From Escherichia coli (lineage in GTDB: Bacteria; Pseudomonadota; Gammaproteobacteria; Enterobacterales; Enterobacteriaceae), in NCBI RefSeq assembly GCF_050320075.1, contig NZ_CP190018.1: a stretch of 64,000 nucleotides of DNA; one strand, 5' to 3'. This document shows, one piece after another, positions 1,047 through 49,593 of this stretch; the stretch's first letter is position 1, and every line of letters begins with the position of its first letter. The position numbers and the translations under genes are program-made. The notes under the pieces are model-generated. The model worked only from the letters and a program-made list of their open reading frames with translations. It searched no databases and was not told the origin of the DNA.

Positions 1047-3023
1047 ATGCAGCTTAATCATATCGTTAAAAGTCTGCTAATAACGGGATTATTCACCACC
1101 AGTTCTTTACCTCTCCTCGCGGCGGAAGCTCCTAAAGACGCCACCGCAGCCACGCAACAAGCAAACAATTTACTCTACAACCAGTTGCCGTTTGCCGATA
1201 ACACTGACTTTACTGATGCCCATAAAGGTTTTATTGCCCCTATCCCTCAAGACGTGATTAAGGGCGAACAAGGGAATGTTATCTGGGATCCACAACATTA
1301 CGCTTTTATCAAAGAAGGCGATAAAGCCCCTGATACGGTGAATCCGAGTTTATGGCGTCAGGCGCAACTGATAAATATCAGCGGGTTATTCGAAGTAACT
1401 GAAGGTGTCTATCAGATTCGCAATCTCGATCTATCAAATATGACCATCATTGAAGGCAAAGAGGGTATTACCGTCGTTGATCCCCTTGTTTCAGCAGAAA
1501 CAGCCAAAGTGGGTATGGATCTCTATTACAAAAATCGCGGCAAAAAACCGGTAGTGGCGGTTATCTATACACACAGTCATGTCGATCACTACGGTGGTGT
1601 TCGTGGCGTAATTGATGAAGCTGACGTTAAATCAGGCAAAGTTAAAATCTATGCGCCAGCCGGATTTTTGGAGGAAGCCGTTTCCGAAAACATCATGGCT
1701 GGCAATGTTATGAGCCGACGAGCCAGTTATATGTATGGCAACTTATTGAAACCTGATGTTAAAGGCCAGGTGGGGGCTGGACTGGGAACGACTACTTCAG
1801 CAGGAACAGTCACGTTGATTGCTCCTACTAACTACATCACCAAAACCGGACAAATAGAAACTATTGACGGGTTGACTTATGATTTCCTGATGGCGCCAGG
1901 TTCTGAAGCGCCTTCTGAAATGCTGTGGTTTATTGAAGAAAAGAAACTGATCGAAACCGCTGAAGATGTCACGCACACCCTTCATAACACCTATTCGCTG
2001 CGTGGGGCTAAAATTCGCCAACCGCTGCCGTGGTCAAAATATATTAATGAAGCTCTCAATTTGTGGGGTGATAAAGCCGAGATTATTCTCGCTCAACATC
2101 ACTGGCCAACCTGGGGCAACGATAACGTGGTCAAACTGCTTAAAAGCCAGCGTGATTTGTATCGTTACATCAATGATCAAACTCTGCGCATGGCTAATCA
2201 AGGGATGACCCGTGATGAAATTGCCGCAAACTTTAAACTGCCCTCTTCACTGGCTAACACCTGGGCGAATCGCGGCTATTACGGTTCGGTAAGTCATGAC
2301 GTGAAAGCAACTTACGTGCTTTATCTCGGCTGGTTTGATGGTAACCCCGCGACGCTTGATGAACTGCCGCCAGAAGAAGGCGCAAAAAAATTCGTCGAGT
2401 ATATGGGCGGTGCTGATGCCATTTTACAGAAAGCCACACAGGATTATGACCAGGGTAATTTCCGCTGGGTTGCCCAAGTTGTTAGTAAGGTGGTGTTTGC
2501 CGATCCAAACAACCAGGCAGCGAGAGATCTGGAAGCTGATGCGCTTGAGCAGTTAGGCTATCAGGCTGAATCTGGGCCGTGGCGTAATTTCTATCTCACT
2601 GGTGCACAGGAATTGCGTAATGGCGTACAAAAATTACCAACACCAAATACTGCCAGCCCAGACACCGTGCGTGCGATGACGCCGGAGATGTTCTTTGATT
2701 ATCTTGCCGTCCATATTAATGGTGAGAAAGCGGCAGATGCCAAAACCGTGTTGAATTTCGATTTTGGTGAAGATGGCGGCACCTATAAAGTGGAGCTTGA
2801 AAATGGTGTTCTCAATCATACCGCTGGTGTAGAGGCTTCGGATGCTGATGCCACTATCACTCTGTCTCGTGATGTATTGAACAAAATTGTACTGAAAGAA
2901 GAGACGCTGAAAGAAGCCACGGCCAAAGGAGATGTCAAAATTACTGGCAATGAGGAAAAACTCAACGAGCTGTTAGGTTATATGGATAATTTTGAATTTT
3001 GGTTCAATATAGTGACACCATAA
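1047..3023 (+). CDS. alkyl/aryl-sulfatase, metallo-beta-lactamase fold (YjcS/BDS1-like), with N-terminal signal peptide
   Basis: 658 aa; signal peptide MQLNHIVKSLLITGLFTTSSLPLLAAEA; HSHVDHYGG metal-binding motif; GGAG Shine-Dalgarno upstream. Confidence 0.8.
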   Translation: MQLNHIVKSLLITGLFTTSSLPLLAAEAPKDATAATQQANNLLYNQLPFADNTDFTDAHKGFIAPIPQDVIKGEQGNVIWDPQHYAFIKEGDKAPDTVNPSLWRQAQLINISGLFEVTEGVYQIRNLDLSNMTIIEGKEGITVVDPLVSAETAKVGMDLYYKNRGKKPVVAVIYTHSHVDHYGGVRGVIDEADVKSGKVKIYAPAGFLEEAVSENIMAGNVMSRRASYMYGNLLKPDVKGQVGAGLGTTTSAGTVTLIAPTNYITKTGQIETIDGLTYDFLMAPGSEAPSEMLWFIEEKKLIETAEDVTHTLHNTYSLRGAKIRQPLPWSKYINEALNLWGDKAEIILAQHHWPTWGNDNVVKLLKSQRDLYRYINDQTLRMANQGMTRDEIAANFKLPSSLANTWANRGYYGSVSHDVKATYVLYLGWFDGNPATLDELPPEEGAKKFVEYMGGADAILQKATQDYDQGNFRWVAQVVSKVVFADPNNQAARDLEADALEQLGYQAESGPWRNFYLTGAQELRNGVQKLPTPNTASPDTVRAMTPEMFFDYLAVHINGEKAADAKTVLNFDFGEDGGTYKVELENGVLNHTAGVEASDADATITLSRDVLNKIVLKEETLKEATAKGDVKITGNEEKLNELLGYMDNFEFWFNIVTP

Positions 3024-3035
3024 ATTTACTGCATA

Positions 3036-3062
3036 CCGGGCAGGTATCCTGCCCTTTTTTGG
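3036..3062 (+). terminator. rho-independent terminator after the sulfatase gene
   Basis: GC hairpin GGGCAGG-TATC-CTGCCC followed by a T run. Confidence 0.5.
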
Positions 3063-3069
3063 TTAAAAA

Positions 3070-4167
3070 ATGGCTGAACGAAGAAAAACTCATCACTCAT
3101 GGAAAACCCGCCGCGATATGGTTATTCGCGGCATGACGATTAGTTTGCCATGGTTTGCTTTTATCAATGTCAGTTTTGCATTGATAATTTTGCTGCGCCG
3201 TGTTCTGTTTAATGACCTTACTCCACCCTGGTTAAATGAAAAAAGCCTTATACATTCTATTGATATATCTGCAACGGGTATTCTGCTGATTTGCAGTGGT
3301 TTACTACTCATCCCTCGGCAAAAAACATTACCTATCCAGGTGCTATTAGTTGCCCTGAGCCTGCTATGGTCATGGTGTAGTTATCACTTTATTGCGTACT
3401 GGACGCTGCAGTTTGCTTATCCACTATGTGTATTATTAATGCTTAGTGGCGTTGTCGCACTTTATTTCCATACCCCATCATTGCTCGCATTTGTCATTCC
3501 CTTATGGTTCACCACTCCAATAGCGAGTCTTATGCTTAATCAACAGATCAATATTCATTTTGCTGTTGTATGGTGTATTTTTTCACTGGCGCTATATGGT
3601 GGGCGACTCATTTTGTTACGTTGGTTTGAAGAAGCATGGGTACAAAACAGTTATAACAACCAGTTAATTAATCGCCTTGATGCATTAGCACATCGTGATC
3701 CTTTAACTGGGATAGCAAACCGACGTGCAATGAACAGTATCTTACACGACGCGATGGATAACGGCGGGTCATTTGCTCTTATTATGCTGGATGTCGATTT
3801 TTTTAAACGTTACAACGACACTTACGGGCATCCTGCTGGGGATCGTTGTCTAATACAAGTTGCCGACGCTCTACAGCGTTCAACTCGCCAGTCGGAGGAT
3901 GTTGTTGTCCGTTATGGTGGCGAAGAGTTTGCCATCATACTTTTTAATGCAACATTGCCGGAAGCAGAGACGGTAGCAGCCAGAGTGAAGCAAGAACTTA
4001 AACTGGCAGCTATCCCACATCAGGCATCTGCTGTTAATGCATTTGTTACGGTTAGTCAGGGGATTACCTGTTCTGCTCCCGCAAAAACGGCTGAACAAAT
4101 TATTTCAGATGCCGACGCTGCGTTATACCGGGCGAAAGAAAGTGGGCGAAATCGATGGGCTTTATAA
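3070..4167 (+). CDS. membrane-anchored diguanylate cyclase (GGDEF domain, GGEEF active-site motif); start codon uncertain
   Basis: Hydrophobic multi-helix N-terminal half; C-terminal GGDEF domain with RYGGEEF and DxLTG-like motifs. Confidence 0.8.
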   Translation: MAERRKTHHSWKTRRDMVIRGMTISLPWFAFINVSFALIILLRRVLFNDLTPPWLNEKSLIHSIDISATGILLICSGLLLIPRQKTLPIQVLLVALSLLWSWCSYHFIAYWTLQFAYPLCVLLMLSGVVALYFHTPSLLAFVIPLWFTTPIASLMLNQQINIHFAVVWCIFSLALYGGRLILLRWFEEAWVQNSYNNQLINRLDALAHRDPLTGIANRRAMNSILHDAMDNGGSFALIMLDVDFFKRYNDTYGHPAGDRCLIQVADALQRSTRQSEDVVVRYGGEEFAIILFNATLPEAETVAARVKQELKLAAIPHQASAVNAFVTVSQGITCSAPAKTAEQIISDADAALYRAKESGRNRWAL

Positions 4168-5065: not shown

Positions 5066-5377
5066 CTGCTATACGCCGGACACCCTTTACGTAGCATTCG
5101 GAATTCACCCGTAAATTTATCACGGCGGTATCACGAAACCTCCGGTTCTGATGCCGCTTAGGACTAACGACACGTCAACACAGGTTCGGGTTTATTCATT
5201 TCACTGTATCTCATATAATCTGAGCACTCCCCCTGCGCTCGCTACTATGACTCTTTACCACAGCAACCGGGGTTGTTTGGGATCGGCTTTCAACAGCAGA
5301 TCCCGGTGGCTATTGCAAGTAAGTCTACTTTCCACATCAGTGTTACTGACACAGAAAATAATGAGTTATGATCCTTG

Positions 5378-17964: not shown

Positions 17965-18675
17965 ATTGTGCACAGAAAACCCCCAGCTAGGCTGGGGGTT
18001 CCGGAAAGCTTTCAGCTTTAAGCCAGTTATTAAAACCCCTTTTGATTTGTTAAAACACCTTGCGGTCTGGCAACTGCAAGTGTCAAACAAGAAATCAAAA
18101 GGGGGTCCCAATGGGGAACGAAAAGAGCTTAGCGCACACCCGATGGAACTGTAAATATCACATAGTTTTTGCGCCAAAATACCGAAGACAGGTGTTCTAC
18201 AGAGAGAAGCGTAGAGCAATAGGCAGTATTTTGAGAAAGCTGTGTGAGTGGAAAAGTGTACGGATTCTGGAAGCTGAATGCTGTGCAGATCATATCCATA
18301 TGCTTGTGGAGATCCCGCCCAAAATGAGCGTATCCGGCTTTATGGGATATCTGAAAGGGAAAAGCAGTCTGATGCTTTACGAGCAGTTTGGTGATTTGAA
18401 ATTCAAATACAGGAACAGGGAGTTCTGGTGCAGAGGGTACTACGTCGATACGGTGGGTAAGAACACGGCGAAGATACAGGATTACATAAAGCACCAGCTT
18501 GAAGAGGATAAAATGGGAGAGCAGTTATCGATTCCCTATCCGGGCAGCCCGTTTACGGGCCGTAAGTAACGAAGTTGGATGCAAATGTCAGATCGTGTGC
18601 GCCTGTTAGGGCGCGGCTGGTAAGAGAGCCTTATAGGCGCATTTGAAAAACCTCCGGCTATGCCGGAGGATATTT
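17965..18675 (+). mobile_element. IS200-like insertion sequence (IS200/IS605 family), boundaries approximate
   Basis: Left-end hairpin CCCCCAGCTAGGCTGGGGG just upstream of a 152-aa HUH/Y1 transposase; about 0.7 kb. Confidence 0.6.
18111..18569 (+). CDS. tnpA: IS200 transposase TnpA (Y1 HUH transposase, 152 aa)
   Basis: MGNEKSLAHTRWNCKYHIVFAPKYRR with HxH motif (ADHIHML) and catalytic Tyr region. Confidence 0.85.
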   Translation: MGNEKSLAHTRWNCKYHIVFAPKYRRQVFYREKRRAIGSILRKLCEWKSVRILEAECCADHIHMLVEIPPKMSVSGFMGYLKGKSSLMLYEQFGDLKFKYRNREFWCRGYYVDTVGKNTAKIQDYIKHQLEEDKMGEQLSIPYPGSPFTGRK

Positions 18676-43748: not shown

Positions 43749-45389
43749 TCACACCGTAGCGAAACTAACTTGTTCACCCGCTCCGCGAGGTTCTGCCAAC
43801 ACAGAATGTTTGTTCAGACGGAATACGTCCACCGCCTCAGTTAATCGTGCCGCCTGTTCTTCAAGGGACACCGCCGCCGCTGAGGCCTCTTCTACCAGAG
43901 AAGCATTCTGTTGCGTCACCTTATCCATTTCAGAAATCGCCTGGCTAACCTGAGTTATGCCTCTGCTTTGTTCATCCGAGGCAGCGGCGATTTCCTGCAT
44001 GATATGTGTGACACTCGCGACGGCATCAACAATAGTGCTCATGGTTTTCCCTGCCATTGCCACCTCATCCGACCCCAGGTCAATTAACCTGACTGATTCA
44101 CTGATCAAGCCTTCAATCTCTTTCGCCGCCTGAGCGCTGCGGCTTGCGAGTGTCCGTACTTCGCTGGCGACAACGGCAAATCCACGCCCTTGCTCACCCG
44201 CTCGCGCGGCTTCAACGGCAGCATTCAGTGCCAGAATATTCGTCTGGAAAGCAATACTGTTGATGACGGCGGTGATCTCAGAAATTTTCTTCGAACTCGT
44301 GGAGATAGCGCCCATCGTTTTTACTACACCGGAAACCGTCTGCCCGCCATCGCTGGCTTTAATAGAAGCCTCTTGCGCCAGTTTGCTGGCATGATGCGCG
44401 TTATCCGCATTCTGTTTCACCGTCGCAGTAAGTTGCTCCATGCTGGCGGCAGTTTGTTCGATAGCCGCCGCTTGTTCTTCGGTGCGAGATGACAGGTCCG
44501 CATTGCCAGCTGAAATTTCGCTGGTGCCACGATAAATCTCTTCCGCACCCTGTCGAACAGTCCCTACTGTCATCCCCAGTGAATGCTGCATTTGCTGTAA
44601 ATGACGACTTAAGCGACCGATTTCATTACGACCCGCCGGTTCATCATTCATCGTCAGATCGCCACTGGCGATTTTTTCAATCCGTTGTGCGGCATGTTGC
44701 AGTGGACGAATGACGATCCGACGTAGCACTATAAATGTTATCAGCGTCATGACCAGGGCAAGCACAAACGCGCCAATCATGAACATCCCACCCAGGCGGG
44801 TGCGCTGATGGGCCAGTTCCGCCAGTTGGTTGGCTCTGGCGCTACGTATCTTAACGGCTTTGCTCAAAATATCGGTATAAGCATTATCCAGCGGTCGGAT
44901 CTGCTCACTTTCATGATTGATAATCGCTTCAAACATGCCATTTTTGGCATATTTCAACATCGGTTGCATACCCGTGATATAAGCCTGGAAGCGTTGATTT
45001 AATTCAGTGTCGAGGGCTTCATCAGCAGGTGTTTTCACCGACCGATTCTGATAAGCACGATAACCTTGCTGCGACTGTTTAATCTCCGATTCGGCTTGCG
45101 CAATATTTCGCTTCATTGCTTCCATTTCAGCAATACGACTCGCAGCACCAGCCTGAATCATATTGATCCGGGCTGAACGCAAAAAATCTGAACTGTTCGC
45201 TAACCCGGTCCGAATCTCAATCTCCGCAGTAACATCACGCTGATCGCGATCGGCCTGCCAAAGGAAATAGCCGGCCAGGGCTGAACTTAATGCGAATAGA
45301 ACTAAGATACCGCCAAGAATGCAGGCAAATAACGGAACCAGCCTGATGTGATGCAAAAAACCTAATCGCTGTGAGGGAGTTGTATTCAT
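43749..45389 (-). CDS. trg: methyl-accepting chemotaxis protein III (ribose/galactose sensor)
   Basis: 546 aa; two transmembrane segments, HAMP domain, MCP signalling domain with methylation sites. Confidence 0.9.
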
Positions 45390-45764
45390 TACCGTTGTCT
45401 CTCTTCCAGGTTTACTCCTGATAGAAAGTCATCGGCACTTGACGGTAATTTCTTACGACCAAAAACCTCTTTGCGTCACATTTTTACAACAATTATGGCA
45501 GAGAAGAATAATGCCATTGGAATGAAGAGAGTAACGAATGATTAAACTGGCTAAACCGAATGACGAAAAATTCTGGAAAACAGCACGCAATTTCGTGAAG
45601 TGATTATTTTCGTCCCTAAGGAAACCTCATAGGATGCCTGCGGGTGCCTGAGACTTTCTGTTTTCAGGCTAACCGGGAATCAGAAAGACGAAGGCCCCGA
45701 CCGATATTTCTATCAACTGTACTGCACCCATTTTGTTGGACGATGAAATGGAATAGCCCCTAAT

Positions 45765-46286
45765 ATGTCAAAGCCAAAATACCCTTTTGAAAAGCGCCTT
45801 GAAGTCGTGAATCACTACTTCACAACTGATGATGGTTACAGGATCATCTCGGCACGTTTTGGTGTCCCCCGAACCCAGGTCAGGACATGGGTTGCCCTCT
45901 ATGAAAAACATGGAGAAAAAGGTTTAATTCCCAAACCTAAAGGCGTTAGTGCTGATCCAGAGTTGCGTATTAAGGTCGTGAAAGCTGTGATCGAGCAGCA
46001 CATGTCCCTTAATCAGGCTGCTGCTCACTTTATGCTTGCTGGTAGTGGTTCTGTAGCCAGGTGGCTGAAGGTCTATGAAGAGCGCGGAGAAGCTGGTTTA
46101 CGCGCGCTCAAGATTGGCACCAAAAGAAACATTGCAATATCAGTTGATCCAGAAAAAGCGGCATCAGCATTGGAGCTGTCAAAAGACCGACGCATTGAGG
46201 ATCTTGAAAGGCAAGTTCGATTTCTTGAAACGCGGCTTATGTATCTAAAAAAGCTGAAAGCCTTAGCTCATCCCACGAAAAAGTAA
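45765..46286 (+). CDS. insJ: IS150 OrfA (InsJ), helix-turn-helix DNA-binding protein
   Basis: 173 aa MSKPKYPFEKRLEVVNHYF. Confidence 0.85.
   Translation: MSKPKYPFEKRLEVVNHYFTTDDGYRIISARFGVPRTQVRTWVALYEKHGEKGLIPKPKGVSADPELRIKVVKAVIEQHMSLNQAAAHFMLAGSGSVARWLKVYEERGEAGLRALKIGTKRNIAISVDPEKAASALELSKDRRIEDLERQVRFLETRLMYLKKLKALAHPTKK
46277..46283 (+). other. putative programmed -1 ribosomal frameshift site (A AAA AAG) joining orfA to orfB
   Basis: Slippery heptamer at the orfA/orfB overlap, as in IS3-family elements. Confidence 0.5.
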
Positions 46287-47134
46287 AAGTACTCAACGAG
46301 CTAAGGCAGTTTTATCCTCTTGATGAGCTTCTCAGGGCTGCGGAGATACCGCGCAGTACGTTTTATTACCATCTAAAGGCTCTCAGCAAGCCTGACAAGT
46401 ATGCGGACGTTAAAAAGCGTATTGGTGAGATTTATCACGAGAATAGAGGCCGATACGGATACCGTAGGGTAACGCTGTCTCTTCATCGAGAAGGGAAACA
46501 GATTAACCATAAAGCTGTTCAGCGCCTGATGGGAACCCTCTCACTTAAAGCAGCGATTAAGGTCAAGCGATACCGCTCTTACAGAGGAGAGGTAGGGCAA
46601 ACCGCCCCTAATGTTCTCCAAAGAGATTTCAAGGCTACGCGGCCAAACGAGAAGTGGGTTACCGATGTTACTGAATTTGTAGTCAATGGGCGCAAGCTGT
46701 ATTTGTCTCCAGTAATAGATCTCTTCAACAACGAAGTTATTTCTTACAGCCTTTCGGAAAGACCAGTGATGAACATGGTTGAGAATATGCTCGATCAGGC
46801 ATTCAAAAAGCTTAATCCTCACGAGCATCCTGTTCTGCACTCTGACCAGGGATGGCAGTATCGTATGAGAAGATATCAAAATATCCTTAAAGAACATGGT
46901 ATTAAACAAAGCATGTCCAGAAAAGGCAATTGTCTGGATAATGCTGTGGTGGAGTGTTTCTTTGGAACCTTAAAGTCGGAGTGTTTTTATCTTGATGAGT
47001 TCAGTAATATAAGCGAACTGAAGGATGCTGTTACGGAATATATTGAATACTACAACAGCAGAAGAATTAGCCTGAAATTAAAAGGTCTGACTCCAATTGA
47101 ATATCGGAATCAGACCTATATGCCTCGTGTTTAA
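46283..47134 (+). CDS. insK: IS150 OrfB (InsK), DDE transposase catalytic domain, expressed as an OrfAB fusion by frameshift
   Basis: Frame open from about 46268; DDE integrase-like sequence. Confidence 0.75.
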
Positions 47135-47175
47135 CTGTCCAACTTTTTGGGGTCAGTACAAACCGAGGCCAACGA

Positions 47176-47383
<208 letters not shown>

Positions 47384-47454
47384 GGGCAAGCGCGGGGATT
47401 TTCCCCGCGCATCTGACTAGCAGATTCATTTTCTCATGGCACCCCTTTTACACT

Positions 47455-47628
47455 TCAGTTAGTGCATGTTTTTTTCGATGCACTAATAGAACCATCATTA
47501 CAGACAAATTTGCCGCCTGCCGTACAGTGTGAGATCCCCCCTTTCGAACCAGAACAGGGTTTGCGCCCGGCATCGGCATAAAAGGAAACAAGCGTTCCCA
47601 TAAACAAGATAAGTGCCAGTTTTTTCAT
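47455..47628 (-). CDS. ydcA: small secreted cysteine-rich protein YdcA (57 aa)
   Basis: MKKLALILFMGTLVSFYADAGRKPCSGSKGG; GGAGG Shine-Dalgarno; not in the ORF track (too short). Confidence 0.65.
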   Translation of the reverse strand: MKKLALILFMGTLVSFYADAGRKPCSGSKGGISHCTAGGKFVCNDGSISASKKTCTN

Positions 47629-47798: not shown

Positions 47799-47862
47799 CT
47801 TCCGATGTAGACCCGTATTCTTCGCCTGTACCACGGGTCGGTTTTAGTACAGGCGTTTTCTT
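47799..47862 (+). ncRNA. rydC: RydC small RNA (Hfq-dependent, pseudoknot), approximate ends
   Basis: cybB-ydcA intergenic location; CTTCCGATGTAGACCCGTATTC...; hairpin CCTGTAC/GTACAGG with T-run; TATAAT-like -10 box upstream. Confidence 0.55.
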
Positions 47863-48403: not shown

Positions 48404-48591
48404 AACATTTCCTGCTTTAACATAATTTTCCGTTAACATAACGGGCTTTTCTTAAAATTTCATTAAATATTGTTCACCCGTTTTCAGTACGTTACGTTTC
48501 ACGGCAAGAATGTAGATTGCCCATCCCGCCATCCTGGTCTAAGCCTGGAAAGGATCAATTTTCATCCGAACGTTCCTGACAGGAGAAGACC

Positions 48592-49593
48592 ATGAGTAAA
48601 GTTGGTATTAACGGTTTTGGTCGTATCGGTCGACTGGTGTTGCGTCGATTACTTGAAGTCAAAAGCAACATAGACATTGTCGCTATTAATGATCTCACTT
48701 CCCCAAAAATTCTCGCCTACCTGCTGAAACATGATTCAAACTATGGACCGTTCCCCTGGAGCGTTGATTTTACGGAAGATTCACTTATCGTTGATGGGAA
48801 AAGTATCGCGGTTTACGCCGAAAAAGAGGCTAAAAATATTCCGTGGAAAGCGAAAGGGGCAGAAATTATTGTCGAATGTACTGGCTTTTATACCTCCGCC
48901 GAGAAATCGCAGGCGCATCTTGATGCTGGTGCGAAGAAGGTGTTGATTTCCGCCCCTGCCGGTGAAATGAAAACTATCGTTTATAACGTCAATGACGACA
49001 CTCTGGATGGCAACGACACCATTGTTTCCGTGGCGTCATGCACCACTAACTGCCTTGCGCCGATGGCCAAAGCCTTGCACGACAGTTTCGGAATAGAAGT
49101 CGGCACGATGACGACCATTCATGCCTATACCGGCACTCAGTCACTGGTGGATGGCCCGCGTGGTAAAGATTTACGTGCTTCACGCGCAGCGGCAGAAAAT
49201 ATCATTCCCCACACTACGGGGGCGGCAAAAGCCATTGGTCTGGTGATCCCAGAACTGAGCGGCAAACTGAAAGGTCATGCGCAACGCGTGCCGGTGAAAA
49301 CAGGTTCCGTCACTGAACTGGTATCGATTCTCGGAAAAAAAGTGACTGCCGAAGAGGTGAATAACGCACTTAAACAAGCAACCACCAATAACGAGTCATT
49401 TGGTTATACCGATGAAGAAATAGTCTCTTCCGATATCATTGGCAGCCATTTCGGTTCGGTGTTTGATGCCACGCAAACCGAAATTACCGCCGTGGGCGAT
49501 TTACAACTGGTGAAAACGGTCGCCTGGTACGATAACGAATATGGCTTCGTCACGCAGCTTATTCGCACCCTCGAAAAATTCGCTAAACTCTGA
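48592..49593 (+). CDS. gapC: glyceraldehyde-3-phosphate dehydrogenase C, intact 333-aa reading frame
   Basis: NAD motif NGFGRIGR; catalytic SCTTNC. Confidence 0.85.

Follow-up and report, generated by a model that had tools for sequence, protein, structure and literature searches.

In the hok/sok module of plasmid R1, translational activation of hok requires the element tac, and the roles of tac, fbi, ucb and the Shine-Dalgarno (SD) sequence of mok have been reviewed (PMC9841398). On the chromosome of Escherichia coli K-12, several relatives of this module are interrupted by insertion sequences (IS), hokA/sokA by IS150 and both hokC and hokE by IS186 (Pedersen and Gerdes 1999, via PMC12214031). 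For a further chromosomal relative, hokB, links have been described both with drug tolerance induced by (p)ppGpp and with A-to-I editing of mRNA (PMC12214031). Here we describe the hokB/sokB locus in a stretch of 64,000 nucleotides (nt) from E. coli contig NZ_CP190018.1 (assembly GCF_050320075.1; "the window" denotes this whole stretch), in which a copy of IS150 occupies the hokB leader. We consider it likely that IS150 transposed into the leader, that the toxin-antitoxin module was thereby disabled or decoupled with its toxin frame left intact, and that this is a recurrent event guided by a target preference of IS150; the same junction occurs in 561 of 5,426 complete E. coli genomes.

The surroundings of hokB/mokB have been called a mutational hotspot on account of IS events in long-term evolution and mutation-accumulation lines (PMC8569431), and hokB/sokB has been described as a common IS target and hotspot in laboratory lines (bioRxiv 10.1101/027086; PMC8569431). 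In the literature searched, no paper named both hokB and IS150, and hokB is mentioned neither in Consuegra et al. 2021 (main text, supplements) nor in Maddamsetti et al. 2015. Both the interruption of chromosomal hok loci by ISs and the status of hokB/sokB as an IS hotspot are already documented, and the event in the window is known in kind, an ordinary IS insertion. For E. coli B, the element in the laboratory hokB/sokB events was reportedly IS150 (Schneider et al. 2000; Woods et al. 2006). The strain B lines were reportedly struck by the same element and at the same locus as the window, and the deletions that followed in them have natural analogues in strains KA0011 (into trg) and SWHEFF_68; they differ in that theirs are laboratory events, whereas the window allele is natural and identical to that of strain 28Eco12, which belongs to sequence type (ST) 38 (PMC6963479).

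IS150 divides the hokB/sokB locus

The element belongs to the IS3 family, lies on the plus strand and is the only copy of IS150 within the window. Its first bases read TGTACTGCACCC and its last GGGGTCAGTACA, with termini TG...CA (TGTACTG...CAGTACA) and imperfect terminal inverted repeats in which about 20 of the first 25 positions agree, and it differs from a K-12 copy (NC_000913 3720633-3722075) at 4 of 1,443 base pairs (bp). OrfAB is uninterrupted over 456 amino acids (aa), orfA and orfB being joined at an A6G slippery site presumably by programmed -1 frameshifting, and scores 413 bits against the NCBIfam transpos_IS3 model (cut-off 160). In strain 144, the identical sequence is annotated by RefSeq as an IS150 transposase with programmed frameshift. 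When the element and one AAC were removed in silico, the remainder aligned without gaps and colinearly with the uninterrupted K-12 locus trg-sokB-mokB/hokB-ydcA-cybB. The IS-free genome CFSAN061763 matches the window across 1,000 bp to the left and 1,500 bp to the right of the site and carries the identical empty site. Length, termini and repeats, the 3-bp duplication with its empty site, the frameshifted transposase and near-identity to the K-12 copy all identify the element as IS150, and its presence reflects a genuine simple transposition, not a chance resemblance. The initial annotation had called a 1,443-bp IS150 ending at 47160, with an AAC duplication and 15 bp from the mokB start codon (ATG, 47176), and proved exact to the base.

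The features of the divided locus are given below. RF01794, named "sok", describes the leader of hok on the sense strand, from the 5' end as far as the ATG of hok; the K-12 sokB gene used for mapping is 57 nt long (NC_000913 1492119-1492175).

45600-45641, plus strand: hokB promoter region with candidate -10 TAGGAT (45630-45635), placed by its position directly upstream of RF01794 position 1
45642-45717, plus strand: first 76 nt of the hokB leader, with tac (45642-45653) and anti-SD/ucb (about 45693-45699), from RF01794 and the predicted fold
45684-45717, minus strand: last 34 nt of sokB (loop, 3' arm of the terminator stem, U tail), from K-12 sokB mapping; cut off from the promoter
45715-45717: left copy of the target-site duplication AAC, 3 bp, from the sequence and the K-12 alignment
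45718-47160, plus strand: IS150, apparently intact (orfA 45765-46286; A6G frameshift site 46247-46253; end of orfAB 47134)
47161-47163: right copy of the target-site duplication AAC, 3 bp, from the sequence and the K-12 alignment
47164-47186, minus strand: first 23 nt of sokB (26 with the duplicated AAC), comprising the single-stranded recognition tail and the first part of the stem, from mapping
47176-47343, plus strand: mokB reading frame, 55 aa, with its SD (GAGG, 47166-47169) 5 nt from the IS150 end
47194-47222, minus strand: sokB promoter, intact (TTGCCT-17 nt-TAACAT), placed by its position 7 nt upstream of the annotated sokB 5' end
47234-47383, plus strand: hokB toxin gene, intact, 49 aa (NF007279 Hok family, 100.3 bits, cut-off 73)
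47432-47444, plus strand: fbi, the 3'-terminal element of the hokB mRNA, with complementarity to tac (45642-45653) in the predicted fold

Both strands of the module are split at this point. On the sense strand, RF01794 positions 1 to about 81 match at 45642-45717 (72.4 bits) and the remainder of the model at 47161-47239 (44.2 bits, below the gathering score of 59), from which the hokB transcript would start near 45642 and IS150 would follow leader nt 76. On the antisense strand, K-12 sokB maps with one mismatch to the minus strand from 47186 to 47164 and on from 45717 to 45684; there is no complete sok gene, as IS150 lies within the 5' arm of the SokB terminator stem and the halves are about 1.4 kb apart. 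The positions from 45560 to 45717 are identical to K-12, and HokB differs from its K-12 counterpart by one substitution (Arg3 in the window vs His3). Neither the hokB promoter region nor the sokB promoter was called in a generic promoter scan. Rfam matches to SNORA29 and mir-15 near the locus were below threshold and were set aside as biologically irrelevant.

In the predicted fold of a reconstituted 374-nt hokB mRNA, nt 1-12 (tac) pair with fbi at 47432-47444, and the mokB SD region (47164-47170) is paired with the upstream anti-SD (45693-45699). The IS150 site falls inside this SD/anti-SD hairpin, 5 nt from GAGG, and read on the opposite strand this hairpin forms the terminator stem-loop of SokB. 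The reconstituted mRNA resembles hok/sok of plasmid R1 in its tac-fbi and SD/anti-SD pairings, in its overlapping mok and hok frames and in its short antisense RNA, which has a tail at the 5' end and a hairpin as terminator. Unlike the plasmid module, the locus in the window is chromosomal and is split by 1,446 bp, which breaks both the long-range pairings in cis and the antisense gene. To the left of IS150 remain the hokB promoter, tac, the anti-SD and the 3' 34 nt of sokB; to the right lie the mokB SD, mokB/hokB, fbi, and sokB from its promoter through its first 23-26 nt. The elements tac, anti-SD, SD and fbi are thus all present, but not in a contiguous hok mRNA, with the first two 1,446 bp from the last two. 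These data bear out the initial annotation, which had placed the insertion within the hokB mRNA leader in the region of sokB and the promoter and had proposed an alignment to an uninterrupted locus: RF01794 and K-12 sokB are both split, the promoter lies to the left of IS150, and the alignment to K-12 shows leader and sokB divided and the hokB promoter parted from mokB/hokB. Since promoter, leader and sokB do not all lie intact on the hokB side, the reading of a disrupted locus stands.

Probable consequences for the toxin module

IS150 lies between leader nt 76 and 77, in the mokB SD/anti-SD hairpin that doubles as the SokB terminator stem-loop. The insertion parts mokB/hokB from the hokB promoter, 5' tac and the anti-SD, and also parts the sokB promoter and the first 23-26 nt of the antisense gene from the remainder of SokB; because the hairpin is shared by both strands, a single insertion does both. 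The hokB promoter region is now directed into IS150, and the 5' part of sokB, still attached to its own promoter, likewise reads into the element. The native regulated hokB mRNA and native SokB would then no longer be produced while the toxin frame is preserved, so that the module would be disabled or at least decoupled. As judged from the anatomy of the locus, the module is most likely disabled or decoupled, its toxin frame intact but silent; activation of the toxin is unlikely, and a functional rewiring, though possible, lacks support.

The resulting state would be that described for K-12 hokA, hokC and hokE, where the IS likewise lies beside an intact toxin frame in the overlap of leader and sok. 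K-12 hokB, in contrast, is uninterrupted and is regarded as the one remaining functional hok locus on that chromosome (PMC12214031). That other K-12 hok loci are inactivated by ISs had been stated in the initial annotation and is confirmed for hokA, hokC and hokE (PMC12214031); the resemblance that it drew for hokB finds support here, with function deduced from anatomy.

Several points weigh against so complete a loss. Loss of function is read from sequence and predicted structure. IS150 and hokB are co-oriented, and a scan of IS150 shows no plus-strand intrinsic terminator, so that transcription begun at the hokB or the transposase promoter could still extend into mokB/hokB. The intact sokB promoter could in turn give rise to a chimeric antisense RNA in which the recognition tail of SokB is retained, and the module may be rewired rather than dead. 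Two elements in the right end of IS150 bear on these points:

47083-47117, minus strand: 15-bp hairpin followed by U-rich UUUUAAUUU, from a terminator scan
47122-47127, plus strand: GCCUCG, a predicted surrogate anti-SD that pairs with the mokB SD CGAGGC (47164-47169)

Read-through from the transposase gene, or an outward or hybrid promoter of IS150, could express mokB/hokB free of native leader control and so raise toxin levels. Such activation is favored by the shared orientation, by the lack of a plus-strand terminator-like site in the IS150 scan, by the intact mokB SD, ATG and both frames within 5-15 nt of the IS150 end, and by the displacement of the native anti-SD to the far side of the element. 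However, a sigma-70 scan of 45380-47480 returned 3 sites overall, no excess over shuffles, and no plus-strand site near the IS150 right end, and no usable -35/-10 pair spanning the junction of IS150 and flank was evident by eye. The suggestion in the initial annotation that an outward IS150 promoter drives hokB is therefore unsupported, although read-through could still occur. Read-through RNA is predicted to have its whole mokB SD paired with GCCUCG of IS150; in the RNAfold partition function, the SD is unpaired with a probability of 0.00-0.04, with or without the 3' fbi region. Transcripts initiated within the IS would be without tac, on which translational activation of R1 hok depends (PMC9841398), the sokB promoter would presumably still give antisense RNA across the mokB start, and the allele is stably carried in the 561 genomes. 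We therefore regard activation of the toxin as unlikely.

The predicted pairing and the minus-strand hairpin are also the basis of a different proposal, in which the right end of IS150 replaces the lost parts: GCCUCG would serve as a surrogate anti-SD, the hairpin would end a chimeric SokB-IS150 antisense RNA of about 110 nt, HokB would stay silenced, and the hokB promoter would now transcribe the transposase gene. The hairpin at 47083-47117 is likely a terminator for transcripts entering from the sokB promoter, and at the hokB orientation the right end of IS150 may, in structural models, rebuild both the anti-SD and the antisense terminator. The chimeric RNA (47186 to 47072) keeps the 16-nt SokB tail and is predicted to fold at -45.1 kcal/mol (z = -6.3) into a junction-spanning hairpin and the 15-bp hairpin, and sequestration of the SD is predicted as well. 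On the same strand, orfA follows the hokB transcription start at a distance of 123 nt, and hokB is induced by (p)ppGpp (PMC12214031); the insertion may thus place the transposase gene under a stress-responsive promoter. The orientation count of 561 vs 0 is also in keeping with this proposal, but asymmetric target recognition explains the bias equally well. Moreover, the proposal is built wholly on structure prediction, and later deletions of IS150 that also took the mokB start and a portion of the sokB promoter, seen among roughly 80 genomes, resemble decay and not a maintained circuit. A rewired module is accordingly very unlikely, and a disabled or decoupled module is the reading that we retain.

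Probable recurrence of the insertion at hokB

Carriers were identified among the 5,426 genomes with a right-junction query consisting of 40 bp of IS150 and 60 bp of flank. All 561 share the junction and the orientation (164 at >=99% identity and 397 at 95-99%), and the latter 397 represent flank haplotypes other than that of the window. A synthetic junction query with IS150 reversed at the hokB site found no full-length match among the 5,426 genomes, and in 4,491 of them hokB/sokB is uninterrupted and contiguous. A 2,033-bp segment of the window is 100% identical in many genomes, including 28Eco12 and KTa008. The initial annotation had described the outcome as one of this particular strain, which is correct for the window but not as a private event, given the same insertion in 561 complete genomes of several lineages.

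To resolve the history of the insertion, 12 IS-bearing and 5 IS-free loci were compared. The 12 IS-bearing loci carry three IS150 variants, up to 20 single-nucleotide polymorphisms (SNPs) apart, in at least six flank haplotypes, which already diverge 15-54 bp from the IS150 ends. The flanks of IS-free and IS-bearing loci differ by 0-1 SNP each (CFSAN061763 vs the window, 0 SNPs over 2.5 kb; K-12 vs EC-107, 1+1 SNPs). Copies of the K-12-type IS150 variant are 0-2 SNPs apart, yet as many as 39 SNPs separate the 1.5-kb flanks on their right. Such a pattern is in keeping with several insertions that were recent and independent and that shared both trinucleotide and orientation. Because selection alone would permit many positions, a target preference of IS150 is implied, and the sequence comparison points to target-site preference, not only selection, as the cause of the recurrence.

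Alternatively, a single ancient insertion could have been inherited vertically or spread by homologous recombination, in which case nothing would be learnt about the target choice of IS150. Junction and orientation are indeed identical in every carrier, E. coli recombines, and 7 of the 12 sampled copies represent nearly the same IS150 variant. A single origin is nevertheless difficult to reconcile with at least six carrier haplotypes that differ so close to the IS150 ends, with the three divergent IS150 variants, and with IS-free genomes whose flanks are identical or 1 SNP off; it would require precise excision in thousands of IS-free genomes. Further, the IS-free relative CFSAN061763 harbors an identical IS150 at hokA, a plausible local donor, the paralogous hokA leader was struck at the homologous nucleotide, and new IS events have arisen at hokB/mokB in laboratory lines (PMC8569431). 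We consider a single insertion quite improbable. Recurrent insertion is the better account, against which it must be weighed that the count of independent insertions is based on 12 sampled loci, that allele transfer by recombination with very short tracts is formally possible, and that the genome counts are inflated by clonal sampling.

Paralogous hok loci and target choice

Strong target preferences occur in several ISs: IS186 selects GC-rich sites, and IS30 and IS911 insert near sequences resembling their own ends. IS150 at the hok loci resembles these target-selective elements in that insertion point and orientation are repeated exactly, and differs from them in that its preference is drawn from two paralogous sites only. 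The second of these is hokA. In CFSAN061763, the sole IS150 lies in the hokA leader (fetched locus 1501-2943), is identical to the copy in the window and is flanked by an AAG duplication; its orientation is that seen at hokB, and again exactly 15 nt separate the IS150 end from the mokA ATG. At hokA of this genome, IS150 is preceded by ...AATCAAAG and followed by AAGTGAGGCCCCTCTATG, and at hokB in the window it is preceded by ...TATCAAC and followed by AACCGAGGCCAACGAATG. As the only copy in CFSAN061763 and identical to that of the window, the hokA element is a plausible donor. The CFSAN061763-type hokA junction occurs in 880 genomes and the K-12-type hokA junction in 1,644, and KTa008, which matches the window over the 2,033 bp, has both the hokB and the hokA junction.

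The K-12 copy of IS150 in hokA/sokA lies within 1-2 RF01794 model positions of the hokB site; it runs the other way, and a deletion of about 39 nt has removed the SD and the start of mokA. In 9 genomes, a hokD-type locus carries IS150 within the 5' arm of the corresponding hairpin. Overall, the collection contains 5,225 chromosomal IS150 matches, of which the hokB (561) and hokA (880 and 1,644) junctions account for about 59%, a share that is inflated by shared ancestry and does not count independent events. It is a tentative and rather doubtful generalization, albeit one that these data support, that IS150 homes to the hairpin 5' of the mok SD, always inserting at one nucleotide and, at hokB, in one direction, with hok leaders as its main chromosomal residence in E. 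coli. On this view, tolerance of the site may reflect the fact that a single strike disables toxin and antitoxin together.

The target sequence CGAGGC recurs in inverted form within IS150 itself, as the subterminal hexamer GCCTCG located 34-39 nt from the right tip. The right end of IS150 and its flank (47122-47169) together form an imperfect 48-bp palindrome (GCCTCGTGTTTAAC...GTACAAACCGAGGC). This likeness of hexamer and palindrome might underlie target recognition, or it might be chance. A separate 22-nt inverted repeat between the tac region (45651-45672) and IS150 (47067-47088), 82% complementary, was considered and rejected as probably due to chance.

Decay and rearrangement after insertion

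The left junction is present in 643 genomes, about 80 of which have no right junction. Some of these left-only genomes (partial, 80% match) retain just the first 20 bp of the IS150 left end, joined to ...AGCCTCTTACCC. In SWHEFF_68 (fetched locus 3561-3580), a 20-bp remnant of IS150 marks the same AAC site, and the deletion took the rest of the element, the mokB SD and ATG, the 5' part of sokB and part of the sokB -10. In KA0011 (fetched locus 522-1157), the N-terminus of trg has been lost beside IS150, an adjacent deletion like those in laboratory lines. IS1 directly adjoins the left end of IS150 in PSS-04 (fetched locus 821-1597). Copies of IS1 inside hokB/sokB were also seen in other lineages. 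In OkiPb01679 (fetched locus 1355-3263), an IS150-mediated rearrangement joins a hokD-type gene, IS150 and hokB; this arrangement probably arose by inversion between a pair of IS150 copies, of which one had lain in the 5' arm of the hokD-type leader hairpin.

Other features of the window

Four further features were noted in the window:

5202-5310, minus strand: group II intron domain match RF01999 (48 bits vs a gathering score of 36), which suggests a group II intron
17978-18101, plus strand: STnc490 Hfq-binding small RNA (146 bits)
47799-47862, plus strand: RydC small RNA between ydcA and cybB (RF00505, 92.5 bits, full length)
about 48590-49590: glyceraldehyde-3-phosphate dehydrogenase gene (gap/gapC) downstream of cybB, annotated as intact in the haplotype of the window; gapC is a pseudogene in K-12

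Implications

About one tenth of complete E. coli genomes carry a hokB that is split by IS150, and these carriers include the haplotype of the pandemic ST38 clone, which calls for caution in extending the biology of K-12 hokB to clinical strains. Together, the repeated strikes at hokB, fixed in orientation, and the strike at the homologous position of hokA provide a clean natural example of IS target preference, and this preference may explain "parallel" hits in hokB during evolution experiments.

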